Shown in pieces: positions 60 to 33,966 of a DNA stretch of 33,966 bases. The DNA comes from Elusimicrobiota bacterium (GTDB taxonomy: Bacteria; Elusimicrobiota; UBA8919). The stretch is from positions 1-33,966 of the forward strand of contig JAZDKR010000052.1 of assembly GCA_043802785.1 (NCBI GenBank), written 5' to 3'. Below the pieces are notes generated by a model. The model did not search any database, was not told the origin of the DNA, and was given only the letters and a program-made list of their open reading frames with translations. Numbering within the stretch: the stretch's first letter is position 1; each line of letters starts with the position of its first letter. The position numbers and the translations under genes are program-made.

Positions 60-87
60 AATCTAACCCTCCCTTCAGGGTTAGATT
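60..87 (+). other. perfect hairpin (aatctaaccct / agggttagatt, loop cccttc)
   Basis: Inverted repeat read directly. It may be a terminator of an upstream gene or an operator and overlaps the first direct repeat. Confidence 0.5.
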
Positions 88-135
88 ATACATGATTTGA
101 CGATGACCCCTTGGGTTAGATTATACATGATTTGA
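78..135 (+). promoter_or_regulatory. two identical 23-bp direct repeats (gggttagattatacatgatttga) 35 bp apart, immediately upstream of a promoter
   Basis: Exact repeats at 78-100 and 113-135, seen in the sequence. Their position just 5' of the -35 box suggests a transcription-factor binding site. Confidence 0.55.
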
Positions 136-144
136 TACGAACCC

Positions 145-173
145 TTGACTTCTAATGTAAAGATTGATATAAT
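145..173 (+). promoter_or_regulatory. sigma70-like promoter TTGACT-17-TATAAT
   Basis: ttgact at 145-150, a 17-nt spacer, tataat at 168-173, roughly 90 nt upstream of the GTG start at 262. Confidence 0.5.
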
Positions 174-261
174 GAAATTGTTGAATTCGCGAAAAAAGAT
201 ATTACCACAGAGCAACAATTATTTTGACATTACTTTGAGGTGAGACAGGAGGTGTTTAGAA

Positions 262-2043
262 GTGATAGAAACATTTTGTAAAGAGGAAATAAAAAAGGAT
301 AAAAGTATAGCATATTTCTCGATGGAGATAGGTATTGATTCAAGAATTCCAACATACAGCGGTGGGCTTGGTGTTTTAGCCGGAGATACACTCAGATCCT
401 GTGCTGACCTGAAAGTGCCGATAGTTGGAATAACTCTGTTATATAAAAAAGGATATTTCTATCAGAAATTAGATGAACAAGGTAATCAAACAGAACTACC
501 CGCACAATGGACACCGTCGGATTTTTTAGAACCGTTGCCCGGAAAAATAAATGTAAAGATAGAAAATAGAGATGTCCTTGTTCGGGTGTGGCAGTACAAA
601 TTAAAATCCGTAGATGGGAATTATTTTGTTCCTATATTTCTTCTTGATACCGATGTTCCCGAAAACAGTGATTACGATAAGTCACTTACAGATTATCTTT
701 ATGGCGGAGATGAAAAATATCGGTTTGCACAAGAAATTATTTTGGGAATCGGTGGTGTACGGATGCTTCGTGAACTTGGGTATACTGACATAAAAAAATA
801 TCATATGAACGAAGGGCATTCAAGTTTATTGGTTTTGGAATTAGCAAGACCAGGTAGGTTCGCCTGCGGCGAAGAACTTAAAAAACAAGAAGAACCTTCG
901 TCGGTGCGCGATTTATGCGTTTTTACCACACATACACCTGTTCCGGCAGGTCATGACAAATTTTCATATGATTTAGTGAAAAATGTTCTGGGTGATTTTG
1001 TTTCGCTTGATACTCTTAAAATGCTTGCCGGTGAAAAAAATCTCAATATGACTTTGCTCGCACTAAATTCAGCAGGGTACATAAATGGTGTTGCAAAAAA
1101 ACACGGTGAAGTTTCTCGTGAAATGTTTCCGGGGTACCCGATTGATTCTATAACTAATGGAGTGCATCCATATACTTGGGTATCCGAAAGTTTTAGAAAA
1201 TTATACAATAAATACATTTCTGGTTGGCCAAAAGATCCTTTCACATTAAGAAATATAATGAGTATTCCAAAGACGGAAATATGGGATGCACATATGGGAG
1301 CAAAGAGAAAACTGATTGACTATGTTAATGATGAATCAAATGTCGGAATGAACTATGAAACACTCACAATAGGATTTGCAAGGCGGCTGTCCACATATAA
1401 AAGAGCAGGTCTTTTGTTTTTTGATATTGAGCGGCTTGTTAATATTTCCAAAAAAGCAGGAAAAATACAGGTTGTATTGGCGGGGAAAGCGCATCCGAAA
1501 GATATACATGGGAAGGAGTTAATAAAGAAAATCTTTGAATGTATCCGTAGAGTTAAAAAGGACATAAAGATAGTATATCTCGAAAATTACGATGTAGAAC
1601 TTGGGAAGATAATTACTGCCGGAGTTGATCTTTGGCTGAATACACCTTCAAGACCCAAAGAGGCATCCGGTACTTCCGGAATGAAAGCATCTCTTAACGG
1701 AGTTCCAAATTTTAGTATATTAGATGGTTGGTGGATAGAAGGATGTATTGAGGGCGTTACAGGATGGTCTATTGGGGAAAAAACAATTGGCGCTGTTAGG
1801 AATAAATCACGAGAGACGGATGTTCCATCTATATGGGGAATTTCTGAAACGGTTGAAGAAAATTCTGACGAAAAAGACGCTCATGATTTATACAAAAAAT
1901 TGGAAAATGTAATTATTCCGATGTTCTACAAAGATAGAGAACAGTGGCTAAGTATTATGCAATATTGCATTGCATTTAACGCCTCTTTTTTTAATACAAA
2001 CAGAATGGTTCACGAGTATGTATTGAATGCGTATTTAACATAG
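262..2043 (+). CDS. glgP: alpha-glucan (glycogen/maltodextrin) phosphorylase family, GT35
   Basis: SGGLGVLAGD motif and the PLP-lysine motif EASGTSGMK. GTG start with AGGAGG 8 nt upstream. Confidence 0.85.
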   Translation: MIETFCKEEIKKDKSIAYFSMEIGIDSRIPTYSGGLGVLAGDTLRSCADLKVPIVGITLLYKKGYFYQKLDEQGNQTELPAQWTPSDFLEPLPGKINVKIENRDVLVRVWQYKLKSVDGNYFVPIFLLDTDVPENSDYDKSLTDYLYGGDEKYRFAQEIILGIGGVRMLRELGYTDIKKYHMNEGHSSLLVLELARPGRFACGEELKKQEEPSSVRDLCVFTTHTPVPAGHDKFSYDLVKNVLGDFVSLDTLKMLAGEKNLNMTLLALNSAGYINGVAKKHGEVSREMFPGYPIDSITNGVHPYTWVSESFRKLYNKYISGWPKDPFTLRNIMSIPKTEIWDAHMGAKRKLIDYVNDESNVGMNYETLTIGFARRLSTYKRAGLLFFDIERLVNISKKAGKIQVVLAGKAHPKDIHGKELIKKIFECIRRVKKDIKIVYLENYDVELGKIITAGVDLWLNTPSRPKEASGTSGMKASLNGVPNFSILDGWWIEGCIEGVTGWSIGEKTIGAVRNKSRETDVPSIWGISETVEENSDEKDAHDLYKKLENVIIPMFYKDREQWLSIMQYCIAFNASFFNTNRMVHEYVLNAYLT

Positions 2044-12009: not shown

Positions 12010-12288
12010 ATGTTTTTGTCGGGGATAACTACATATGAATGGGATTCAAAAAATATATCCCATATTTTGCAACACCAAGTAAGACCAGATGAAGTTGAAG
12101 AAGCATGTTATAATAATCCAGTTGTTCTTAAAACAAGAGGGAATTGTTATTTAGTGCTTGGTAGAAGCAATACAGGGAAATACTTATCTATTGTGGTTGC
12201 ACCAAAAGAAGAAGGCAAAACACGAGTTATAACAGCCAGAAATATGGACCACAAGGAAAGAAAACTTTTCACAAGAAAAAGGAAATAA
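12010..12288 (+). CDS. brnT: BrnT-like toxin (DUF497)
   Basis: YEWDSKN...H N-terminal signature, about 90 aa, followed 12 nt later by a BrnA-like gene. Confidence 0.65.
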   Translation: MFLSGITTYEWDSKNISHILQHQVRPDEVEEACYNNPVVLKTRGNCYLVLGRSNTGKYLSIVVAPKEEGKTRVITARNMDHKERKLFTRKRK

Positions 12289-17320: not shown

Positions 17321-17508
17321 AACTTTTTAACAATTATAACACGAAATGGAAGTGAAGGGTCTCGCTTCTCGTATAGCAACAAGATTCTTCGCTGAATTTA
17401 TTGCAGCAAAAATACTCGGATTTATTATTGATATAGCTGTCACACTGCTTAATGATTGGGTAGGAGAAAATTGGGTAGAAGTTTTAAACAAAAAAGGAGG
17501 CGACTAAA

Positions 17509-17688
17509 ATGTCTTTTTTTGACAATGTTAACGAATCATTAAAGCGAGAAATAAAGTATCAACTTTTGGGTGGTTCAAAAGGTGCTGGGCGTTTTTATGA
17601 CCCAGGCCGTGCATTGAGAGATGAAGTGAGAGAACAAAATAAAATTATGGAAAAACCACAATGTAAAGGCAAATATATTCCGTACTAA
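17509..17688 (+). CDS. candidate RiPP precursor / small protein, 59 aa, ending ...KPQCKGKYIPY
   Basis: Strong RBS AAGGAGG 8 nt upstream. It lies directly 5' of the RRE-radical SAM genes. C-terminal Tyr with a Cys 7 residues upstream. Confidence 0.4.
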   Translation: MSFFDNVNESLKREIKYQLLGGSKGAGRFYDPGRALRDEVREQNKIMEKPQCKGKYIPY

Positions 17689-17724: not shown

Positions 17725-17943
17725 ATGGTCGTTACAAATTTATCTATGAGAGAATATTATATCAATAAATGGGTAGCATCAAGAATTTATGGTGGTAGGA
17801 CCGTAATCTATAATTTAAAAGACCACAACATTTTGACACTTGCCGGTACATCATCCGTTATTTGGCAGGAAATAAACAAACATAATAGTTTGCCCAATTT
17901 AACAGAAAAACTTGGTAAAGTTTTTAATGCTCCATTTCAATAG
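17725..17943 (+). CDS. PqqD/MftB-like RiPP recognition element (RRE), ending at an in-frame TAG inside the domain
   Basis: ...LTLAGTSSVIWQEINKHNSLPNLTEKLGKVFNAPFQ* aligns with the PqqD family. The last helix of the domain (...KEFLCSLAEVNLIEI) is encoded after the TAG in the same frame. Confidence 0.6.
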   Translation: MVVTNLSMREYYINKWVASRIYGGRTVIYNLKDHNILTLAGTSSVIWQEINKHNSLPNLTEKLGKVFNAPFQ

Positions 17944-18072
17944 ATAGAATCGGATACAAAAGAATTTTTATGTTCGTTAGCAGAAGTAAATCTTATCGAA
18001 ATAAGCAAATATAATTGCGACAATGTTTTATCAAAGATACCTATTGAAAAACAACAAAGCAATAAACAATTA

Positions 18073-19128
18073 TTGGACATAGAAAAAGAAATTTCAATAA
18101 AAACAGCAAATGAAAAACAACTTTTCAATGTTTTGTTTGAACTAACTTATAATTGTAATTTAAGTTGCGTTCACTGTTATGCTATAAATTGTAAAACAAA
18201 TCTGCCGTTAAATAATGAATTGACTACAGAGAAATGGAAATCCATAATTGATGAACTCTATGATGAAAATGCTTTTTTGATTACTTTTTCGGGTGGTGAC
18301 CCATTTTTAAGGAAAGATTTTTTGGAAATTTTTAGATATGCGAGAAAAAAAGATTTTGTGTGTAATATTTACACAAACGGAAATTTGATAACTGATGAAA
18401 TAATAAATGAAATTTGTGATTTATACCCGAGAAGTGTTCAAGTTAGCATTTACAGTGCAAGGGAAGAAATTCACGATGCAATAACTCAAGTAGGGGGTTC
18501 TTGGAGAAAATCCTTTGCTGTTCTGGAAAAATTACATTCTAAAGGTATTTTAATTGGATTCAAATGTCCTCTTATGAAATCTAATATAAAATATTATGAA
18601 GAAATGAAAAATCTTGCCAAACAATTTGATGCCTCGTTACAAATGGACTTAATGATATCAGCTAAAAATGATGGTAATTTGGAGCCAACAAACATAAGAG
18701 TGCAAGACGATCAAGATATTTTTAAAATAATAAGCGACCCGGAAATAGATGGTTATTATAGTGAATATAAAAGAGGTGAACAAATATCTGATAAAGACCC
18801 AGAAGCATCAATTTGCGGTGCTGGTGGAAACGGCTTTCGTATAAACCCTTACGGAGTGATAAATGTCTGCATTGCATTACAGTATCCTATAGGAAATGTG
18901 AATAATCAATCCGTTAAGGAAATATGGAACAATTCTAACTCGTTGAGCAATTTCAGAAAATTTAAGTGGAATGATTTAAAAGATTGTAAGAATTGTAAAA
19001 TATCAAGATATTGTATTTTTTGTCTTGGCGCATCCAAAAATGAAATGGGCGATATGTTAAAAAAGAATCCATATAACTGCAAAATCACATCCGCCAGGAC
19101 GAAATATTTTTCAAAAAAAAGGGGGTGA
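18073..19128 (+). CDS. radical SAM / SPASM-domain peptide maturase (MftC/PqqE-like)
   Basis: CNLSCVHC (Cx3Cx2C), FSGGDP, and a C-terminal Cys-rich SPASM domain. The frame is open back to 17944; the first in-frame start is a TTG at 18073 with no RBS. Confidence 0.85.
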   Translation: MDIEKEISIKTANEKQLFNVLFELTYNCNLSCVHCYAINCKTNLPLNNELTTEKWKSIIDELYDENAFLITFSGGDPFLRKDFLEIFRYARKKDFVCNIYTNGNLITDEIINEICDLYPRSVQVSIYSAREEIHDAITQVGGSWRKSFAVLEKLHSKGILIGFKCPLMKSNIKYYEEMKNLAKQFDASLQMDLMISAKNDGNLEPTNIRVQDDQDIFKIISDPEIDGYYSEYKRGEQISDKDPEASICGAGGNGFRINPYGVINVCIALQYPIGNVNNQSVKEIWNNSNSLSNFRKFKWNDLKDCKNCKISRYCIFCLGASKNEMGDMLKKNPYNCKITSARTKYFSKKRG

Positions 19129-19133
19129 TTTAA

Positions 19134-19235
19134 ATGAAGTATGAAAAACCCAAAATAGAAAAAGAAGCAAAGTTCATTGCTTCTACCGTGGCTGGTCCAC
19201 ATAGTGAGAATTGTTGCTGTCAGATGAGGTATTAG
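19134..19235 (+). CDS. candidate RiPP precursor peptide, 33 aa, ending ...SENCCCQMRY
   Basis: Good RBS (agggggtga) 7 nt upstream, immediately after the maturase stop codon. C-terminal Tyr with a CCC cluster. Confidence 0.35.
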   Translation: MKYEKPKIEKEAKFIASTVAGPHSENCCCQMRY

Positions 19236-19409
19236 TTACAGGTTGTAGGATATTGCCTATTCACATAGCGGTTTGGTAGAGATATGGAGAACACATTTTT
19301 TAGTGAAACTTTGTGAATCTGCCAAACCGCATGGTTGTATAAAATTGCCTGCTAAAATAAAAATTTTAAATGCTGTGGTTTTTCAGATAAGATAAGCGGA
19401 GGTGCTATA

Positions 19410-19944: not shown

Positions 19945-20039
19945 CGAAAAATACTTGACAAATTTTATAAAGTATGTTATCTTTATAGTAAAGAAGTAAA
20001 GAAGTAAAAAAGTAAGGAATTTGGAAAAGGAGGTTGTCC

Positions 20040-20327
20040 ATGCAAAAGATTATTATGGCTCATATGAGTTCTAAAGCGCAGGTCACTGTCCCTAAGGAAG
20101 CGAGACAGATTCTTGGAATAGGACAGTGTAACATTCCTATTGGCTTCATTGTTGAACCCGAAACGCATACCGTTAAACTTACCAGAGTTAATGTCACATC
20201 TGCAGATGAAGATTTCACAGAAGAAGAATATAAAAAACTTCGTAAACTCGCTAAAAAACCGGGTGGGAAAATTTTTACAACTGCCGCCGCAGTTATTAAA
20301 TATCATAAAAAACTCACTAAAAGTTAA
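20040..20327 (+). CDS. AbrB/MazE/SpoVT-type antitoxin
   Basis: ...SSKAQVTVPKEARQILGI... swapped-hairpin motif. RBS aaggagg present. Its TAA overlaps the next ATG, giving a TAATG junction. Confidence 0.55.
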   Translation: MQKIIMAHMSSKAQVTVPKEARQILGIGQCNIPIGFIVEPETHTVKLTRVNVTSADEDFTEEEYKKLRKLAKKPGGKIFTTAAAVIKYHKKLTKS

Positions 20328-20602
20328 TGAAATATTTATTTAGGCCCCGTTATATTCGCAGCATTAAAAAACTTGATAAAAGCCGAGCAGCAAATGTTCA
20401 GAAGACATTTGAATCGCTCGTTAGATTTTTCCAAACAGGTGAAAAACCATTTGGACTCGGGCTCAAGCAATTACGACGTGATATATGGGAAGTTCGTGCC
20501 GGATTACTTGACCGCATAATTTTTCGTCGCACAAAAAATACAGTTGAATTCATTATTGCAGGAACACATAATGAAATCAAAAGATACTTAAATTCTTTGT
20601 AA
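20327..20602 (+). CDS. RelE/ParE-superfamily toxin
   Basis: 91 aa with ...GLKQLRRDIWEVRAGLLDRIIFRR...FIIAGTHNEIKRYL, the RelE/ParE-like pattern. Translationally coupled to the antitoxin. Confidence 0.55.
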   Translation: MKYLFRPRYIRSIKKLDKSRAANVQKTFESLVRFFQTGEKPFGLGLKQLRRDIWEVRAGLLDRIIFRRTKNTVEFIIAGTHNEIKRYLNSL

Positions 20603-21826: not shown

Positions 21827-23539
21827 ATGGTAAAAAAAGTACCGTCGGATATTGAAATAGCGCAGGCAATTGAACTTAACCCGATAATTGATATTGCGGA
21901 AAAAATCGGTATCAAAAGTGATGAGTTGGAATTATACGGTAACTACAAAGCAAAAATAAAACTTGAAATTCTCCAACGGATAAAAAATAATCATCAAGCG
22001 AAATATATTGATGTAACTGCTATAACGCCTACACCACTCGGCGAGGGAAAAACTGTTACAACGATAGGGCTTTCACTCAGTCTATCAAAAATCGGAAAAA
22101 AAGTTATAACAACAATCAGACAGCCGTCGTTAGGTCCCGTGTTCGGAATAAAAGGCGGTGCTGCTGGTGGAGGTTATTCTCAGGTTTTACCGATGGAAGA
22201 TTTTAATCTGCATCTTACCGGTGACGTTCACGCTGTTTCAATTGCACATAACTTGTGTGCTGCATTCGTGGACAATTCTCTTCACAAAGGAAATAAACTC
22301 AATATGGATATGAACAACATATTGTGGCGAAGGGTTGTTGATGTTTCGGACAGAGCGTTAAGGAATATAAAAATAGGGCTTGGAACAAAAGAAGATGGTA
22401 TCCCCCGTGACTCAGGGTTTGATATATCTGTTGCATCCGAAGTTATGGCGATACTTGCGCTAACAACTTCGCTGAAGGATTTAAGAGAACGATTGGGAAG
22501 AATTGTTGTTGCATTTACTCCTGACGGTAACCCAGTCACTACTGAGGATTTGCAGGTTGCTGGCTCTATGGCTGTATTGTTAAGGGATGCTATTAAGCCG
22601 AATCTTCTGCAGACGACAGAACACACGGCTTGTTTCGTTCACGCTGGTCCTTTTGCGAACATCGCACATGGCAACAATTCAATTCTTGCCGACCTTATGG
22701 CAGTAAAACTTACCGATTATGTCGTTACGGAAAGTGGATTCGGTGCCGACTGCGGAATGGAAAAGTTTATGAATATAAAATGCAGATATTCAGGACTTAT
22801 TCCTAACTGCGTCGTTATGGTTTGCTCCATCCGTGCTCTGAAAATGCATTCGGGAAAATTTAATGTTGTTGCCGGCAGACCATTGGAAGAAGGACTGATT
22901 AAAGAAAACCTGACTGCTATTGCCGAAGGAATTTGTAATCTTGAAAAGCATATTGAAAACGCAAAGATGTTCGGTGTGCCAGTTGTGGTTGCAATAAATA
23001 AATTCTCAACAGATACGGATAAAGAGATAGAATTTGTCAGATTGAAGTCATTAGAAGCCGGCGCCGATGATGTTGCACTCTCTACGGTTTGGGAGAATGG
23101 TGGTGACGGTGGCAGGGAATTAGCAGAAGCAGTTGTAAACGCCTGCGAGAAAAAATCTTCAAACGAATTCCGGTTTTTATATCCACTTGATATGCCGATA
23201 AAAGAAAAAATTCAAACAATTGCAACAAAAATATACGGAGCGAAGGATGTTCAGTACACACCGCAGGCAGAAGAAAAAATTAAACTTTACACCAAACTTG
23301 GCTGGGCTCAACTTCCGCTCTGTATGGCGAAGACGCATCTTTCATTATCACACGAGCCGACATTAAAAGGAAGACCAACAGGATTCACATTACCCGTTAA
23401 AGATATAAGGGCATCTATTGGTGCGGGTTTTTTGTATCCTTTGTGCGGCGAGATGAGAACAATGCCAGGGCTTCCATCTGTTCCCGCAGGCACAAAAGTT
23501 GATATTGATAAAGACGGAAAAGTCGTAGGATTGTTTTAA
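21827..23539 (+). CDS. fhs: formate--tetrahydrofolate ligase
   Basis: PTPLGEGKTVTTIGL P-loop region and full-length match to the FTHFS family. RBS ggagg present. Confidence 0.95.
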   Translation: MVKKVPSDIEIAQAIELNPIIDIAEKIGIKSDELELYGNYKAKIKLEILQRIKNNHQAKYIDVTAITPTPLGEGKTVTTIGLSLSLSKIGKKVITTIRQPSLGPVFGIKGGAAGGGYSQVLPMEDFNLHLTGDVHAVSIAHNLCAAFVDNSLHKGNKLNMDMNNILWRRVVDVSDRALRNIKIGLGTKEDGIPRDSGFDISVASEVMAILALTTSLKDLRERLGRIVVAFTPDGNPVTTEDLQVAGSMAVLLRDAIKPNLLQTTEHTACFVHAGPFANIAHGNNSILADLMAVKLTDYVVTESGFGADCGMEKFMNIKCRYSGLIPNCVVMVCSIRALKMHSGKFNVVAGRPLEEGLIKENLTAIAEGICNLEKHIENAKMFGVPVVVAINKFSTDTDKEIEFVRLKSLEAGADDVALSTVWENGGDGGRELAEAVVNACEKKSSNEFRFLYPLDMPIKEKIQTIATKIYGAKDVQYTPQAEEKIKLYTKLGWAQLPLCMAKTHLSLSHEPTLKGRPTGFTLPVKDIRASIGAGFLYPLCGEMRTMPGLPSVPAGTKVDIDKDGKVVGLF

Positions 23540-23550
23540 GGACTGTAAAT

Positions 23551-23730
23551 TTGTAGTTGCTCAATTTATTGAGCGCCTTTAGTAGGTTTGTAGTTGCTCA
23601 ATTTATTGAGCGCCTTTAGTGGGTTTGTAGTTGCTCAATTTATTGAGCGCCTTTAGTGGGTTTGTAGTTGCTCAATTTATTGAGCGCCTTTAGTAGGTTT
23701 GTAGTTGCTCAATTTATTGAGCGCCTTTAT
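23551..23730 (+). repeat. tandem array of 5 x 37-bp REP-like units (ttgtagttgctcaatttattgagcgcctttagtRggt)
   Basis: Exact period of 37 bp. Each unit carries GTAGTTGC plus the hairpin gctcaa-ttta-ttgagc. No spacers, so it is not a CRISPR array. It ends 33 nt before the ATG at 23764. Confidence 0.8.
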
Positions 23731-23763
23731 GCCAGATAAATCGGGCAACCACTGTGACCTAAA

Positions 23764-25881
23764 ATGGATTGGACAAAATTTGAATTAAAACCAAAAGAAG
23801 AAATTATTGCTCTCCTGCAAGGGGTCAATAATATCTTTGTTATCAGTTGCAAAAAATGTTTTAAGGAACTTAATCCTTCGGATGACATTACCGGTTCTGA
23901 TGAATGTCCTGCGGTTTCCAAAATTGTTGAGGAGGCGAATAAAAAAATTGTTGGTTGCATTGATGTAGATTTTCTTTGCAATAAATTATTAACAGAAAAA
24001 CTTATCCCGAAAGATTTTCAATCGGCAGAAGTTATATGTGTTATTTCCTGTGGAATAGGTGTTCAAACCGTTGCAAATTTAATTAAAGATAAGCCGGTGT
24101 ATTGCCTGACAAATTCCGTATTTAAGACGGGACATAGCGGTGAGCACGGAATGGCTTTGGCTGAAGAAAGGTGCGGGGCCTGTGGGGATTGCGTATTAGA
24201 TATTACCGAGGGAATATGTCCTGTAACTAATTGTGCCAAGCAATTACGCAATGGTTCCTGCGGCGGCGCAAAAAATGGTAAATGCGAGGTAAAAAATTCA
24301 GATGGTAGCCAGCGTGACTGTGCTTGGGAAAAAATATACAAACGCTTGAATGCAGTAGTATCGGGGTCTCCTCGCTTGAATGCACGAGAAAAAACAATCG
24401 CGGGAGAACAATCCGTTGAAATTAAGGACCATTCCAAACCGGATTTTGATACAATAAATTCTTGTAGTATTGATATTCGCAATAAACGACAGCAGAGTTT
24501 TTATGGTGGTCTTTATCCAAAAGAGAATAAAAAACAAACTGAAAATAAACCAATTCAACCTTTTCCCGAACCCAAATTTCTAATTATTCCACTATCACAA
24601 CACATCGGCAAAATTTGTGAACCGCTCGTGAAAGTTGGCGATAGAGTAAAAGTTGGACAGAAAATCGGCGATGTATCATCCGAATTTTTGGGTGTACCTG
24701 TCCATTCCAGTGTGAGTGGAAAAGTCATCGAGATTGAACTTAGAAACCATCCGTTAAGTATTGAAAAAGTTCTGGCAATAACCATTGAGTCAGATGGTAA
24801 AAATGAAGTTCAAAAAAGCGAAACATTATGTATTGATGAAAATTGGCAACCCGAGCAGGCGATTAAAATGATTCGCGAGGCAGGAATTGTGGGATTAGGT
24901 GGCGCACAATTTCCTACTTACGCAAAACTGTGTCCACCGAAAAATAAACCGATAGATACTGTTATCCTTAACGGTGCTGAATGTGAACCATATTTGACTG
25001 CGGATTATCGTGTTATGCTGGAAAAGCCGGAAGAATTATTAGCAGGTTTGCGTGCGATAATGAAAATCTTAAATGTTGAAAATGGTGTTATTGCGATTGA
25101 AGATAATAAAGAAGACGCGATAGAAAGGTTAAATAATGTCATTGCGAGTCGCGAAGCAACGAAGCAATCTCAAACAAATAAAATCAAAGTTGTAGAACTC
25201 AAAACAAAATATCCGCAGGGTTCGGAACGGATGCTAATCAAAAAAATCTTAAATAGAGATGTCCCGCTTGGAGGATTGCCCTACGATGTCGGCGTAATAG
25301 TGAACAATGTAAGCACGGCGGTAGCGGTCTACGAAGCATTATATAAAGGCATATCTTTGATAAAGCGAGTAATTACCGTCACGGGCGATAACTGTGTCCG
25401 ACCTGGTAATTACGAGATAAAAATCGGTACACTATTTCAGGATATCATGGAGTATTGTTTTTCTCTTCCCTACCCCTTCACCTGCGGTGAACCTACTTGG
25501 CTATCCCCTACCCCCTATTCACTAAAGATGGGCGGTCCGATGATGGGTATATTACAGAATAATCTTGATGTTCCGGTAATAAAAGGAACTACGGGAATTT
25601 TGGTGTCTGCCAAACCAGACATACAATCTGATTTATCAAGAAGTTGTATCAAATGCGGTCGTTGTGTAGATGCCTGTCCGATGGAATTGCTCCCTTTATA
25701 CTATGCTTTTTATGTTGACCAAGTAGGTTCGCCAGTGGCGAAAAAACAGCAGTGGCAAGAAACAAAACAGTTAGGAGTTATGAACTGTATAGAGTGCGGA
25801 TGTTGTGATGATGTATGCCCCGCAAAAAGGTCAATAGTTGGTGCTGTTAAAATAGCAAAAAAGGCAGTTCATAGTTCATAG
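23764..25881 (+). CDS. RnfC-like NADH-binding FeS subunit of methylene-THF reductase with an N-terminal MetV-like (MTHFR C-terminal-type) zinc-ribbon domain
   Basis: N-terminal ...CGACGDC...CP...CGGAKNGKCEV..., paralogous to the metV gene at 26025. Central RnfC/NuoF-like core (GLGGAQFPT..., LNGAECEPY...). Two C-terminal CxxCxxCxxxCP ferredoxin motifs. Confidence 0.8.
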   Translation: MDWTKFELKPKEEIIALLQGVNNIFVISCKKCFKELNPSDDITGSDECPAVSKIVEEANKKIVGCIDVDFLCNKLLTEKLIPKDFQSAEVICVISCGIGVQTVANLIKDKPVYCLTNSVFKTGHSGEHGMALAEERCGACGDCVLDITEGICPVTNCAKQLRNGSCGGAKNGKCEVKNSDGSQRDCAWEKIYKRLNAVVSGSPRLNAREKTIAGEQSVEIKDHSKPDFDTINSCSIDIRNKRQQSFYGGLYPKENKKQTENKPIQPFPEPKFLIIPLSQHIGKICEPLVKVGDRVKVGQKIGDVSSEFLGVPVHSSVSGKVIEIELRNHPLSIEKVLAITIESDGKNEVQKSETLCIDENWQPEQAIKMIREAGIVGLGGAQFPTYAKLCPPKNKPIDTVILNGAECEPYLTADYRVMLEKPEELLAGLRAIMKILNVENGVIAIEDNKEDAIERLNNVIASREATKQSQTNKIKVVELKTKYPQGSERMLIKKILNRDVPLGGLPYDVGVIVNNVSTAVAVYEALYKGISLIKRVITVTGDNCVRPGNYEIKIGTLFQDIMEYCFSLPYPFTCGEPTWLSPTPYSLKMGGPMMGILQNNLDVPVIKGTTGILVSAKPDIQSDLSRSCIKCGRCVDACPMELLPLYYAFYVDQVGSPVAKKQQWQETKQLGVMNCIECGCCDDVCPAKRSIVGAVKIAKKAVHSS

Positions 25882-25943
25882 TTCATAGTTCGTAGTAGAG
25901 GCGGATGACGGATAACGAATAACAGATTTTGATTTTATTAGTT

Positions 25944-25965
25944 GTAGTTGCCCAATTTATTGGGC
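25944..25965 (+). repeat. REP-like unit with compensatory stem (GTAGTTGC-gcccaa-ttta-ttgggc)
   Basis: Single copy of the 23551-type unit. The stem differs at two positions on each arm, and pairing is preserved. Confidence 0.55.
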
Positions 25966-26024
25966 GCCGTTGACCTACGCAATACGCAATACGTTTTTAT
26001 CTGTTTTGTATCGCCCTTAAAAAA

Positions 26025-26663
26025 ATGCTAACAATCAAACTTAAACCCGTAGATAATTTGCGGTCATATCTAACAGAAAAAAATCTGATAATACGATGCC
26101 TCGGTTGCCGCGAAGTTCTATTCCCGGAAGAACAGGTGAACAATTTTAAGGAGGGACTGTCCCCGCAGGGGACTGTCCCATATGATATTGACGATATTGC
26201 AACCGATTATTTGTGTAATCCTGACTATACCCAGACGCGGCTGAAATTGTGGCAGAAGAAAATTGACGAAGCGACAAGTATAATAATTTTTTCATGCGGG
26301 GTTGGTGTGCAAGTTGTATCTTCGTTGATGAATAGACATACTTATGCCGGGGCTGATACTGTTCATCTCAATGGTTTTCAGGGTTTAACACCTACAGAAT
26401 ACGATTGTGATCTTTGCGGTGATTGCCTTTTAAATTATACCGGTGGACTTTGTCCTATAACTGCCTGCTCAAAATCGTTGCTTAATGGTTGTTGCGGCGG
26501 TGCCAAAAACGGTAAGTGCGAAGTTAATAAGGAACTTGATTGCGGTTGGGAGAAAATTTATAATCGGCTAAAGGAATCCAGTAAAGTTGTCCGAACTGAC
26601 TCCCTTGGAGAAACAACTTCAACGACTATAAAACTGCGAGATTATTCAAAAACAATACCGTAA
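26025..26663 (+). CDS. metV: MetV-like zinc-ribbon subunit of methylene-THF reductase
   Basis: ...CDLCGDC...CP...CGGAKNGKCEV... core, sitting directly upstream of metF. Confidence 0.7.
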   Translation: MLTIKLKPVDNLRSYLTEKNLIIRCLGCREVLFPEEQVNNFKEGLSPQGTVPYDIDDIATDYLCNPDYTQTRLKLWQKKIDEATSIIIFSCGVGVQVVSSLMNRHTYAGADTVHLNGFQGLTPTEYDCDLCGDCLLNYTGGLCPITACSKSLLNGCCGGAKNGKCEVNKELDCGWEKIYNRLKESSKVVRTDSLGETTSTTIKLRDYSKTIP

Positions 26664-26716
26664 AACAGCAGTAAAGTAGTTGGCAGTGGTGTGGTTGGCA
26701 GTGGGCAGGAACATGC

Positions 26717-26818
26717 CGTCATTCCTGCGAAGGCAGGAATCCAGTGTCGTTTTCTTTTCTGGATTCCCGATTTGGCCTGTCCCCGAAAGTAGTAGTCGGG
26801 GAGCACTCGGGAATGACG
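26717..26818 (+). mobile_element. MITE-like element with TIRs CGTCATTCC / GGAATGACG
   Basis: Same type as 17224. Carries the internal hairpins ggaatccag...ctggattcc and ccccgaaagtagtagtcgggg. Confidence 0.5.
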
Positions 26819-26912
26819 ACATAAGGGCGGTTAGCCAACGAACGTCCCCCAATCGCTAACCACAAACGAAACCTCTTTTGGAAAAAGAGGAATATTAACG
26901 ACGGAGAAAAAC

Positions 26913-27791
26913 ATGAAACTTACGGAACTGTTTGCTAATGGAAAATTTGTTATTACTTCGGAAATTGGTCCACCGAAAGGTTGGCAGATTGAGAAGTGTC
27001 TGAATGAAGCGGAACATCTCAAAGATAAAGTGGATGCTATAAATGTTACTGATAACCAATCTTCAGTAATGCGGTTTGGTTCACTTGCAACCTGTCATTT
27101 TTTGAAAGACAGGAATATTGAGCCGGTATTTCAAGTTGTCTGCCGCGACAGAAACAGGATTGCTCTCCAATCGGATATTTTAAGTGCCGCTGCTTTTGGT
27201 ATTGAAAACTTGCTTTTGTTGACCGGTGACCACACAACACTCGGCGACCATCCACAGGCGAGGCCGGTGTTTGATTTGGACTCCGTTTCCTTAATTTATG
27301 CAGTAAAAAAGTTGGAGGAAGGTGTTGACCTCGCAGGCAATAAACTTGAAGGCGAGCCACCGAAATTTGCAATTGGTGCGGTTGTGTCACCGTGCTCTGA
27401 CCCTGTGGAGCCGCAACTTATAAAAATGGAGAAAAAAATAAAAGCAGGCGCGGAATTTTTTCAGACACAGGCAATTTACGAAGTTGAAAAATTTGTAAAG
27501 TTTATGGAAAAGGCGAAACAATTCGGAGCACCTGTTATGGCAGGGATAGTAATCTTAAAATCCGTCGGTATGGCAAAATATATGAATGAAAATGTTGCCG
27601 GCGTTTATGTTCCGGACAATTTAATTGAAGAGTTGAAAAAAGATAAAGAGAAGACAAAATCTGGGCAAACAGGAATAGAAATTGCTACACGACTTATAAA
27701 AGAACTCAAGCCGTACTGTCAGGGTGTTCACATAATGCCGCTCGGCTGGGACGATAAAGTTCCAAAAATTCTTGAACTCGCAGGGTTGTAA
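26913..27791 (+). CDS. metF: 5,10-methylenetetrahydrofolate reductase
   Basis: ...FVITSEIGPPKG..., ...VDAINVTDN... and ...LLLTGD... hallmark motifs. RBS ggag present. Confidence 0.9.
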   Translation: MKLTELFANGKFVITSEIGPPKGWQIEKCLNEAEHLKDKVDAINVTDNQSSVMRFGSLATCHFLKDRNIEPVFQVVCRDRNRIALQSDILSAAAFGIENLLLLTGDHTTLGDHPQARPVFDLDSVSLIYAVKKLEEGVDLAGNKLEGEPPKFAIGAVVSPCSDPVEPQLIKMEKKIKAGAEFFQTQAIYEVEKFVKFMEKAKQFGAPVMAGIVILKSVGMAKYMNENVAGVYVPDNLIEELKKDKEKTKSGQTGIEIATRLIKELKPYCQGVHIMPLGWDDKVPKILELAGL

Positions 27792-31386: not shown

Positions 31387-32333
31387 TGAAAATCAGGGTC
31401 TACCATAAACATGCAATGTTCAGAATTATTCTCCTTCTACTCTTTTTTATAAGTATTATTCAAGAAATTCACGCAAAATCTATCTATCAGAAACAAATAA
31501 ATAATAACGAAATAGAAATAGAATTAGATCCGTACTACACTAATTTTGATTATTATCTGTCACTCACCGAAATCGCCATTCCGTACTATGGTGATACCGA
31601 CGAAATTAACATATACAAAAAATTGCTGACAAACCCTACCCCAAGATATTTGGTGTTTGAGTTAAGTTCCTATCCTCTACCTTGCCTGGGTGGGCTATTA
31701 AAAAAACAAGCCCCGAATTTTTACGAATCAACAAATGTTACAGATGATTTTAACATAATAAAAAGCATCACCGCAGGATTTGAAGAGCCATATGCAATAT
31801 CCTTATTTTTGGGTGATGTAATAAGTTTTAAGCAAAAAAACGTAAAAGATGCCGAAGGCAAAGGTTATATCGGACTTTTGTTGAGCGGGGGCAACTACCA
31901 CATAAAAGACAATGAAATAATCAATGACAACTGGTTAGAAACAGAGTTGAAGATAAAAGGCGACAAAAAAATGCTGGAAAATAAAATGAGTTGGAGTTTC
32001 AGGGTTGGTGCCAAGTTCCACAATAACGATTACATCAAAGATGTTTTATATTTTTCAATAAAACGTGATAGAACGGATGAAGATAAGGTTAAGAATTCTC
32101 TTTTTAGAAATAGCAGTATTGAGTATACAGTTGATGCAGAAACAAATAAAATCGGTGTGCTGAAACACTATTTTCTAATCGGCAAAAAATTTCCGCTCAA
32201 CAAACCAAAAATTATTATTAGTTTGGGAATGGGTTTTTTGTGGGAGAAATCCGATAAATATACCGGTTTGCTTGAAAGAACGGGCGGGACCAACAATTTT
32301 CAGATTCTTTTCAGACCAAATATAGAGTTTTAA
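31386..32333 (+). CDS. putative outer-membrane beta-barrel protein
   Basis: Signal peptide (the alternative start at 31416 gives MFRIILLLLFF...) and a C-terminal ...RPNIEF ending in Phe. ATGA overlap with the upstream gene. Confidence 0.5.
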   Translation: MKIRVYHKHAMFRIILLLLFFISIIQEIHAKSIYQKQINNNEIEIELDPYYTNFDYYLSLTEIAIPYYGDTDEINIYKKLLTNPTPRYLVFELSSYPLPCLGGLLKKQAPNFYESTNVTDDFNIIKSITAGFEEPYAISLFLGDVISFKQKNVKDAEGKGYIGLLLSGGNYHIKDNEIINDNWLETELKIKGDKKMLENKMSWSFRVGAKFHNNDYIKDVLYFSIKRDRTDEDKVKNSLFRNSSIEYTVDAETNKIGVLKHYFLIGKKFPLNKPKIIISLGMGFLWEKSDKYTGLLERTGGTNNFQILFRPNIEF

Positions 32334-32351
32334 TACAAATGCATTATGTAA

Positions 32352-32377
32352 TGCCCCGATTTATCGGGGCTTTTTTT
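32352..32377 (+). terminator. intrinsic terminator gccccgatttatcggggc plus T8
   Basis: Perfect 7-bp GC-rich stem, a 4-nt loop, and a run of Ts. Confidence 0.65.
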
Positions 32378-32378
32378 A

Positions 32379-32407
32379 TTTGAAAATTTCTGTAATTTCT
32401 TGTATAA
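32379..32407 (+). promoter_or_regulatory. sigma70-like promoter TTGAAA-17-TATAAT
   Basis: ttgaaa at 32379-32384, a 17-nt spacer, tataat at 32402-32407, about 215 nt upstream of the ATG at 32623. Confidence 0.55.
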
Positions 32408-32450
32408 TGAGACCGTTGTCCAAAGGGACTCCATCGGAGAAAAAGTCATT

Positions 32451-32600
32451 TGGTGTCACCCTGAATCCGCCGAGGCGGATGAAGGGTCTGCTTGTTCGTC
32501 GGAAGACTGGATTCTGCGTCCCGCTATGGTGGAACGCAGCAATCTCAGTTTTATTTCAATGTTGTGATTGCCACGGCGATTTTATCGCCTCGCAATGACC
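32451..32600 (+). mobile_element. MITE-like element (right half intact: cagcaatctca, gattgccacgg, TIR CCTCGCAATGAC) inside the 5' leader
   Basis: Same boxes as the other family members. The left part has diverged but keeps the hairpin accct-tga-atccgcc-gag-ggcggat-gaa-gggt. Confidence 0.5.
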
Positions 32601-32622
32601 GAAAACAGGAGGTTGAACAAAA

Positions 32623-33966
32623 ATGAAAAGAATTTTGATTTTTGTCGGATTATTGTTGATTTTGGGTAAAGTACCGGTACAAAGTAGTGAAGAGGTGAGA
32701 GATGGACAGTTGCTAAATAAAAGCACGGAACAAATAGTTTTAGAGGGCAGAGAGCAAGGCAGAGAGCAAGGCAGGGAGCAAGGCAGAGAGCAAGGCAGGG
32801 GCAATGACCAAAAAGAAACAACAATAACAACATCATCAACAACAAAAAAAACATATCTATTTGATGACGAGGATAGGAGAAGGTATTATGAAAATGAGCA
32901 AAAAAGATTTTTAGAACAAGAAGAAAGGAAACGGAAAAAACCACCATATGAAAAAAGTTCATGGGAGTTGATTGATGATGCGTACAAAGAAGGTAAGATT
33001 GATATTGACGCTGACTACATTTATAAGCGTTATGTTAAAGAATATCCTGAACTTTTACCACCAGAATATAAGGCAAAACGGGCTATCCCTTGGCAAGGCG
33101 GTACAAGTACAAACATGCTTATCCGACGAGAACTCATAGACAATTGGAATAAATTTCGTCCAGAAACAAAAAAGAGAATTAGGGAATTGGAAGTTAGATC
33201 TATGGTAAAAAGGGACACAAGTATTAGGCAAGAAATAAAAATCACAAAACCAAAAGATAATGAGATAGTTCATTCTCCTGCAATAGTAGTTGAAGGAGTA
33301 ACAGAGATACCCGAAGTATGGAATATTACTTCTCTTTGGGTAAGCATAAGTAACAATGTTATAGATAAAAAACAAGATAAAAAACAGGAAATAAAGTTAT
33401 CACAACCAGAATACATAGTTGGTGAAGAAACATTTGAAGATACAAAAGAAGGAAGGGTTAGAAAGCAGAGAGATATTGAATGGAAAGAAAAATATAAAGA
33501 TAAACCTGGATTTGCTGAACTATCAGATCCTCCCGGTCAGAATGTGTATCGGTTTAGTGAGATGGTGGTATTACCGTCGACGGGTATATGGAACATACAG
33601 ATAGGTGTGAGTAATGAGAGCGGTAATTCCGTCGGCGATGGTGCAACCGTGATATACCCGCCAAGCGATAAGGCGGATACCACGCCGCCCGTGATACAGA
33701 TAGAAGGTATAGAAAACGGACAGCGATTTAGCAAGAAAGAGTTTTATGCGACGGTAAAAACATCTGATGAACCATCAGCATTGGTCAGGTATTATATGAA
33801 TGATGTGACCGCTGGACGAGGTTGGGGGGGGGGCACGTTAAAAAATTATGATTGTTATAGTACTCATTATCTTACAAAGGTCGGCAAAAATATATTCAAG
33901 ATAGCAGTAACCGATTGCTACGGCAACCGAGCGGAGAAAGAGGTAAAATTGTATTACGAACCAGAG
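32623..33966 (+). CDS. secreted repeat-containing protein, 5' partial (runs off the window)
   Basis: AGGAGG 10 nt upstream; signal peptide MKRILIFVGLLLILG; (GREQ)4 repeat; Thr-rich linker; 448 codons with no stop. Confidence 0.6.
   Translation, partial: MKRILIFVGLLLILGKVPVQSSEEVRDGQLLNKSTEQIVLEGREQGREQGREQGREQGRGNDQKETTITTSSTTKKTYLFDDEDRRRYYENEQKRFLEQEERKRKKPPYEKSSWELIDDAYKEGKIDIDADYIYKRYVKEYPELLPPEYKAKRAIPWQGGTSTNMLIRRELIDNWNKFRPETKKRIRELEVRSMVKRDTSIRQEIKITKPKDNEIVHSPAIVVEGVTEIPEVWNITSLWVSISNNVIDKKQDKKQEIKLSQPEYIVGEETFEDTKEGRVRKQRDIEWKEKYKDKPGFAELSDPPGQNVYRFSEMVVLPSTGIWNIQIGVSNESGNSVGDGATVIYPPSDKADTTPPVIQIEGIENGQRFSKKEFYATVKTSDEPSALVRYYMNDVTAGRGWGGGTLKNYDCYSTHYLTKVGKNIFKIAVTDCYGNRAEKEVKLYYEPE
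32747..32806 (+). repeat. 12-bp tandem repeat (ggcagRgagcaa x 4-5) encoding (GREQ)n
   Basis: Perfect periodicity read from the sequence. Its mirror produces the spurious Cys/Leu/Pro-rich ORFs on the minus strand. Confidence 0.8.
33824..33833 (+). repeat. G10 homopolymer inside a coding sequence
   Basis: Ten consecutive G in a low-GC genome, in frame as W-G-G-G. Confidence 0.8.

Follow-up and report, generated by a model that had tools for sequence, protein, structure and literature searches.

The radical S-adenosylmethionine (SAM) maturases of RiPPs (peptides made by the ribosome and modified after translation) occur in two gene arrangements that bear on the locus described here. In CteB, SuiB and TigE, a RiPP recognition element (RRE) at the N-terminus is joined to a radical SAM core and a SPASM domain, and a Cys-containing precursor peptide is encoded next door; in systems of the StsB/StsC and PqqE/PqqD type, a separate PqqD gene accompanies the radical SAM gene. 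The StsA leader holds the recognition sequence KPxWxxP (PMC12710340), and PapB that lacks residues 1-85 is inactive in vivo unless the RRE is given in trans, the Delta-RRE enzyme being weakly active in vitro (PMC12715619). The present work concerns a locus that shares features with both arrangements and lies in a 33,966-bp NCBI contig (hereafter the window, meaning this whole stretch of DNA) from a metagenome-assembled genome (MAG) of the phylum Elusimicrobiota (locus-tag prefix V1833), where the gene for a fused RRE-radical SAM-SPASM maturase is interrupted by an in-frame TAG codon. The domain order and the neighbouring Cys-containing precursor are those of CteB, SuiB and TigE, but identity to these enzymes is just 13-19%, and the gene of the window is an interrupted one.

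The cassette is an uncharacterised representative of the well-known RRE-radical SAM-SPASM RiPP systems, and its TAG is a pseudogenising mutation of an ordinary sort. The probable explanation is that a low-GC (guanine plus cytosine), two-gene RiPP cassette, acquired horizontally, has recently ceased to function, with the TAG as a genuine nonsense mutation. Pseudogenisation is favoured because two coupled genes within 1.5 kb are both broken, while the flanking genes, over ~30 kb, are intact, and the event is considered recent because the maturase gene has no other lesion, keeps its invariant residues and shows no rate acceleration. An earlier note on this DNA had offered as its first option a recent nonsense mutation in an ancestral RRE-radical SAM fusion, and this is the option that is favoured here.

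An interrupted radical SAM maturase gene

As the earlier note had it, the frame that runs on the forward strand from ATG 17725 to the TGA at 19126-19128 is open except for one internal stop, the TAG at 17941-17943 (context CCA TTT CAA TAG ATA GAA TCG), which is codon 73 of the read-through product and lies inside the PqqD/RRE domain; TTG 18073, the start of the downstream open reading frame (ORF), is in the same reading frame as ATG 17725. With the TAG masked, Pfam recognizes three domains in the read-through product: PqqD (PF05402; residues 26-91, 2-67 of the 67 profile positions, 33 bits with the cut-off at 23.4), Radical_SAM (PF04055; residues 139-294, 75 bits) and SPASM (PF13186; residues 364-425, 44.7 bits). 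The first of these matches spans the TAG, in agreement with the earlier proposal that the codons after the stop complete the PqqD fold. The same is suggested by a hidden Markov model (HMM) of the RRE with 95 positions, built from the family: its score rises from 78 bits for the 72-residue fragment to 105 bits for the read-through product (+27), and in-frame homology therefore extends past the stop. The RRE domain is thus encoded complete across the TAG (HMM positions 1-94 of 95), whereas the translated ORF ends at position 70, without helix alpha3 and without a family-invariant Phe (F81, window numbering). The CX3CX2C motif (C144, C148 and C151; nucleotides 18154-18177) is invariant in the alignment, and the SPASM-side cysteines C364, C382, C421, C424, C430, C433 and C452 are conserved.

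The three proteins nearest to the window maturase, P0002, P0003 and P0004, are encoded on Logan contigs L001-L003 and are uninterrupted fusions of 467-474 residues, with 66, 65 and 57% identity to it. In the column of the TAG, for which the earlier note had recommended a comparison of orthologue codons, they have the sense codons CAA (Gln), GAA (Glu) and AAA (Lys), and Q, E, K, T, S or D occurs in homologues farther away; the position is variable, and TAG is one substitution away from CAG, GAG or AAG. In an AlphaFold2 model of P0002 (mean predicted local distance difference test score 85.5), the RRE strands fall within residues 7-37 and are followed by helices at 38-47, 53-64 and 68-84, a disordered linker at 94-110 and the radical SAM barrel. 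The TAG column corresponds to Q70 of P0002, at the start of the last of these helices, alpha3, and it is for this reason that the 72-residue product would lack the recognition helix.

A Foldseek search with the same model gave CteB (5WGG), SuiB (5V1Q) and TigE (8VPO) as the best matches (E = 6e-17 to 1e-15), and the best structural matches, which include SkfB and PqqE, are all RiPP maturases of the RRE-radical SAM-SPASM/twitch type; CteB was also matched by sequence (E = 5e-8). No NCBIfam equivalog model matched the maturase at its cut-off, the best of them (AhbD, MftC, NirJ2 and StsB) being far below; the StsB model matches with E = 2e-31, yet with 109 bits against a cut-off of 625. The RiPP class may be called 'sacti/ranthipeptide-like' at most.

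Apart from the TAG, the maturase gene is undecayed: its 467 codons contain no further stop or frameshift and all invariant residues are kept, including every family-invariant Cys and Gly of the part downstream of TTG 18073. The alpha3 segment after the TAG is 52% identical to P0002, as compared to 48% for the part before it, and no acceleration of rate is seen (64% identity between window and P0004, 66% between P0002 and P0004).

The precursor gene and its lesions

In all four loci, namely the window and L001-L003, a small ORF with a strong Shine-Dalgarno sequence directly follows the maturase gene (Table 1). Between the window and L001, the 18 codons of the leader differ only by four synonymous changes, so that the peptide is identical, and the window leader is near-identical to those of L002 and L003; that the changes relative to L001 are all synonymous indicates purifying selection on the gene until recently. 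The core, in turn, carries two lesions, a Cys-to-Gly change and a 7-nucleotide (nt) insertion. Deletion of 19221-19227 in silico restores ...NCCCGISYRL-stop, which corresponds to the tails of the orthologues, G-[IS]-[NG]-Y-R-x-stop, down to where the stop falls; the displaced 21-mer at 19228-19248 is identical to L003 at 16 of 21 nucleotides and is the single best of the 67,890 21-mers of the window. It is the conserved C-terminal motif C-G-I-x-Y-R-x-stop that the frameshift removes.

More distant homologues help to define which of these features matter. The precursors of L041, L065 and L089 have in common a Y-x-K-P-x-[ILVM] leader with a Cys right behind it and a C-x3-Y-R tail near the C-terminus, and related forms, again small ORFs just after the radical SAM gene, are found in L026, L056/L059, L006/L007 and L019/L022. 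The three features, being common to distant loci, are therefore old in the family, and the window precursor has lost two of them. No curated NCBIfam model matches any precursor of the family, and the comparison exposes an uncurated RiPP family that has these three features, often with a C-terminal C-x3-Y-R-x-x, and is spread over MAGs of Elusimicrobiota, Omnitrophota, Planctomycetia, Armatimonadota, Acidobacteriota, Methanophagales and others. The K-P of the window leader resembles the recognition sequence of the StsA leader. Within the family, L006 presents an unusual layout between 3001 and 6980, with two radical SAM maturases, one RRE-fused and one placed after a discrete PqqD, and two different precursor-like ORFs.

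The public annotation of the window has genes of 65 and 351 residues and no precursor, the flanking protein accessions MFH0948307 and MFH0948308 being consecutive. The region would be better described as one nonsense-interrupted RRE-radical SAM-SPASM pseudogene followed by a frameshifted precursor gene.

Table 1. Features of the cassette and precursor peptides of the window and its closest relatives
Feature	Position	Strand	Description
Maturase 5' fragment	17725..17943	+	72 codons and TAG; RRE/PqqD strands beta1-3 and helices alpha1-2 only; RRE HMM positions 1-70 of 95
NCBI 'hypothetical protein', 65 residues (V1833_04830, MFH0948306.1)	from ATG 17746	+	
In-frame amber codon	17941..17943	+	Codon 73, N-terminal end of RRE helix alpha3
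43 stop-free in-frame codons	17944..18072	+	Helix alpha3 (IESDTKEFLCSLAEVNLIEI) and variable linker; outside any ORF under standard decoding
Radical SAM and SPASM part	18073..19128	+	NCBI: TTG-initiated 'radical SAM protein' of 351 residues, MFH0948307.1
Precursor peptide ORF, 33 residues	19134..19235	+	MKYEKPKIEKEAKFIASTVAGPHSENCCCQMRY; Shine-Dalgarno AGGGGGTG at 19120-19127; unannotated at NCBI
GGT (Gly) codon in place of first core Cys (TGT)	19194..19196	+	Cys in all three orthologues and in distant relatives
7-nt insertion CAGATGA	19221..19227	+	Frameshifts the precursor; from DNA alignment; immediately 3' of the second conserved core Cys codon
Ancestral precursor tail	19228..19248	+	GGTATTAGTTACAGGTTGTAG (G-I-S-Y-R-L-stop), now out of frame
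Precursor peptide of the window			MKYEKPKIEKEAKFIASTVAGPHSENCCCQMRY
Precursor peptide of L001			MKYEKPKIEKEAKFIASTTMACPKYSEAVCGSGYRT
Precursor peptide of L002			MKYEKPKIEKEAKFVASSTLACPSTNVDYCGINYRS
Precursor peptide of L003			MKYKKPVIRKEANYVAASTMGCPQQSEQTCGINYRM

The two lesions of the precursor are also of importance when considering whether the TAG could stem from a sequencing, consensus or strain-mixing error, in which case CAG, GAG or AAG would stand at 17941 in the organism and the fusion would be uninterrupted. The TAG is one base away from three plausible sense codons, the maturase gene is otherwise flawless, and the sole sequence evidence for the locus is one contig of one MAG. In addition, a run of five T (19107-19111) at the maturase 3' end, a type of site prone to indel errors, shifts the last maturase codons with respect to L001 and L002; a version with four T would end in ...YFQKKGGDLNEV-stop, as in these two loci, and would overlap the precursor start. 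However, the maturase tail of L003 also differs in frame from L001 and L002, and the difference in the T run may thus be natural, while the ~30 kb of undisrupted flanking genes point to a low error rate. Furthermore, a 7-nt insertion together with a Cys-to-Gly change is atypical of errors and leaves the cassette defective regardless of the TAG. An error is therefore considered unlikely, although it is the least improbable of the alternatives to a genuine nonsense mutation. The extra T is not counted as a third lesion, as the tail shares its nucleotides with the conserved Shine-Dalgarno sequence and the precursor start, and L003 is in another frame; for the same reasons, the tail is not regarded as conserved at the protein level.

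Fused and two-gene architectures

The wider family of the maturase (~26-39% identity, many phyla) includes both fused and two-gene forms, and a separate PqqD gene (87-131 residues) that abuts or overlaps the radical SAM gene, as in systems of the StsB/StsC and PqqE/PqqD type, is common in it. This evokes the question of whether the window simply holds a natural pair of genes. When the RRE HMM was run on all ORFs of 89 related loci, the stand-alone RRE ORFs (87-192 residues) were found to reach HMM position 84-94 of 95 in 50 of 50 cases, whereas the window fragment stops at position 70, ahead of alpha3. In a six-frame scan of the window and 92 related loci with stops masked, which gave 70 RRE-domain matches, the only match with a stop inside the domain was the window's own. 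The spacing differs as well: in natural pairs the radical SAM gene starts 3 nt after the RRE stop (L004) or overlaps it by 11 nt (L008 and L009), whereas 129 nt separate the RRE stop of the window from TTG 18073, so that the next start is weak and 43 codons away. A natural two-gene split is not supported, since the fragment is too short and the radical SAM start neither abuts nor overlaps it. Orthologous loci with two separately initiated genes, which the earlier note had regarded as evidence against an interrupted fusion, do exist, but in distant homologues only (~30-36% identity), and there the split always comes after a complete RRE.

A related possibility is that the locus works in its present state, the 351-residue radical SAM-SPASM protein initiated at TTG 18073 being active without a functional RRE, be it through leader-independent activity, with help from the 72-residue stump, or through low-level natural read-through of the UAG. 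In principle, a complete catalytic core could come from TTG 18073, without a functional RRE partner. Its catalytic residues are intact, its product would begin 24 residues ahead of TYNCN, a spacing much like the 26-27 residues seen in natural stand-alone partners, the existence of both architectures in the wider family is compatible with such an enzyme, and the weak in vitro activity of Delta-RRE PapB offers a precedent (PMC12715619). Against it, PapB without residues 1-85 is inactive in vivo when no RRE is given in trans (PMC12715619), alpha3, present in each of the 50 natural discrete RREs, is missing from the stump, and the cognate precursor has lost both conserved core features. The TTG itself lies 129 nt past the stop and is not preceded by any Shine-Dalgarno-like sequence.

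With respect to this start, the earlier note was right in that the radical SAM ORF has no ATG (neither ATG nor GTG occurs in frame between the TAG and the CX3CX2C motif) and no Shine-Dalgarno sequence; however, a second TTG, located 8 codons ahead of the motif, adds to the start candidates, and the argument from the missing Shine-Dalgarno sequence is weak and was set aside, because the native ATG 17725 likewise has none and only about half of the genes in the window do. Taken together, a functional remnant is regarded as improbable, somewhat more so than an error in the sequence.

The question of UAG decoding

The frame is open and homologous to its relatives on either side of the TAG, and Gln is the commonest residue at this column, as could be expected if the codon were translated, be it as pyrrolysine, by a suppressor tRNA or through a TAG-to-Gln code brought in by a recoded mobile element. 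Wood-Ljungdahl methyl-branch genes, typical of anaerobes, are present in the window, and some users of pyrrolysine exist among anaerobes. The likeness to the pyrrolysine UAG codons of mtmB, mtbB and mttB is also evident, these being single in-frame UAG codons in otherwise intact ORFs of anaerobes. In the methylamine methyltransferases, however, the UAG is conserved among orthologues and occupies a catalytic position, whereas here the position is variable and non-catalytic, with CAA, GAA and AAA codons in the orthologues.

The use of TAG elsewhere speaks against recoding. In the window, which is the one contig of the MAG that this analysis covers, TAG ends 7 of the 33 other ORFs that were treated as genes (21%), including those for DapB, a PDGLE/CbiN-like protein, CbiO, an RnfC-like protein and MlaF. 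The earlier note had pointed to TAG as the terminator of dapB, and this is borne out by the DapB_C profile, which is complete to position 121 of 121 at this stop; in the case of MlaF, an in-frame MlaD start follows the TAG after 3 nt. Efficient decoding of TAG would therefore fuse DapB to the product of the next gene and MlaF to MlaD. No internal TAG was observed in the other conserved genes of the window.

Signals that could direct local recoding were likewise sought on the contig. No tRNA and no pyl-like Pfam match were found in the window, so that, unlike in pyrrolysine systems, no pyl genes or tRNA are visible next to a TAG that is in common use as a stop. As to the PYLIS-like hairpin that the earlier note had suggested looking for 3' of the TAG, an element that pyrrolysine decoding does not strictly need, the predicted fold of the 123 nt from the TAG (minimum free energy -12.1 kcal/mol) is no better than that of shuffled sequences (mean -11.65 kcal/mol; z = -0.17), and Rfam gave no match at its gathering thresholds, with noise only at E values up to 10. 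In the low-GC island that holds the cassette, no PHROG hallmark was detected except for a weak RelE-like match, and blastn against 50,697 phage records gave no match; an origin of the island from a recoded phage was thus left unsupported. In the library searched, no literature that links pyrrolysine with Elusimicrobia was found.

Read-through or recoding of the UAG, the third option of the earlier note, would in addition leave the precursor unrepaired and its frameshift unexplained. Programmed recoding is accordingly given only a very slight chance, the lowest of the explanations considered here, and equally slight is that of the codon being decoded in vivo by a suppressor or pyrrolysine tRNA encoded elsewhere in the genome, or by context-dependent read-through, to yield regulated, low-level amounts of full-length maturase. 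If this were true, UAG decoding would here represent local stop-codon recoding in a RiPP pathway; to our knowledge, no such recoding is known in the phylum Elusimicrobiota. The TAG is an ordinary stop codon and not a recoding signal.

Probable loss of function of the cassette

Loss of function, the reading preferred here, can be laid out as a series of steps, those for the intact system being modelled on CteB, SuiB, PapB and StsB-type enzymes. The intact cassette would have encoded a fused RRE(PqqD)-radical SAM-SPASM maturase, followed by its precursor peptide. The leader (Y-E-K-P-K-I..., of the form Y-x-K-P-x-I) would add itself as a strand to the cleft that beta3 and alpha3 form in the RRE; SAM cleavage would take place at the CX3CX2C cluster, with the auxiliary clusters of the SPASM domain helping to cross-link the two core Cys, probably as thioethers, within A-C-P-x6-C-G-x-x-Y-R. 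A single-base nonsense change at the variable Gln/Glu/Lys codon, most simply CAG to TAG, would then have left standard decoding with a 72-residue RRE stump that is devoid of the peptide-binding helix and, at best, with an RRE-less enzyme whose initiation at TTG 18073 would be poor. In the precursor, independently, the first conserved Cys would have been lost, and the 7-nt insertion would have frameshifted the C-x3-Y-R motif away.

The setting of the cassette is in line with such a history. Its GC content is 30%, as opposed to 36-43% in the flanks, and it sits between cbiO and ispA, beside a toxin-antitoxin pair. The housekeeping genes in the ~30 kb around it have end-to-end Pfam matches (DapA, DapB, FTHFS, MTHFR, MlaE, CbiM and a P-type ATPase); these genes being intact, the lesions are concentrated in the cassette. 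All of this is familiar from ordinary bacterial pseudogenes, in which a gene intact in all else carries one disabling substitution, a coupled neighbour has a lesion of its own, and both lie in a low-GC accessory island with toxin-antitoxin genes; no material difference was noted between the locus and ordinary nonsense or frameshift pseudogenes of accessory islands.

A number of observations weigh against this reading and should be kept in mind. But for the TAG, the maturase gene is perfectly intact, as a functional read-through gene would look. RiPP cores are hypervariable, and what is taken here for a loss at the precursor C-terminus could instead be a newly arisen variant. Genome and metagenome contigs were scanned for exact patterns around the TAG with no match to a second copy, the 90% clusters of the window proteins have one member each, and what is termed 'conserved' is defined by three close orthologues only; a metagenome scan with the close-orthologue alignment returned three distant matches (23% identity) and no more close orthologues.

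The locus is of little consequence for biology at large. It does provide a worked example of why, before recoding is invoked for a clean in-frame stop in an otherwise perfect gene, the state of the partner genes should be weighed too.

Genomic surroundings

Just upstream of the maturase gene, two back-to-back small ORFs of 53 and 59 residues occupy 17346..17688; the 59-residue ORF, annotated as MFH0948305.1, is preceded by a perfect AAGGAGG Shine-Dalgarno sequence. Neither has a family match, and both are absent beside the orthologues. At the downstream edge of the low-GC island (20034..20602), a PrlF/MazE-like antitoxin gene (97 residues) overlaps a ParE/RelE-like toxin gene (91 residues), both assigned through weak matches. 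A BrnT-family toxin gene was identified by Pfam at 12010..12288, and in L001 the ORF directly upstream of the intact maturase gene (69..317) is BrnT-like as judged by eye; these BrnT-like neighbours hint that the cassette may travel with toxin-antitoxin modules.

Between 12659 and 17045, a NikR gene is followed by genes for CbiM, PDGLE (CbiN-like), CbiQ and CbiO, which probably form a NikR-controlled Ni/Co uptake operon of the energy-coupling factor type; Rfam detected no riboswitch in this region. Downstream of the cassette, genes of the Wood-Ljungdahl methyl branch (21827..27791) encode formate-tetrahydrofolate ligase, a fusion protein of 705 residues, a second MetV-like protein and MetF. 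The fusion protein combines a MetV-like DUF5981 domain with RnfC_N, a Nuo51 FMN-binding domain and 4Fe-4S domains, and the cluster suggests an acetogen-type methylenetetrahydrofolate reductase complex in an Elusimicrobiota MAG. The last 1.6 kb of the window (32333..33966) hold no convincing ORF or Pfam match, have a high AT skew (0.31) and include a 12/24-nt tandem repeat at 32746..32804. A further repeat, located between fhs and the RnfC-like gene (23550..23729), consists of 4.9 copies of a 37-bp unit with 98% identity, and each unit contains the palindrome GCTCAATTTATTGAGC.

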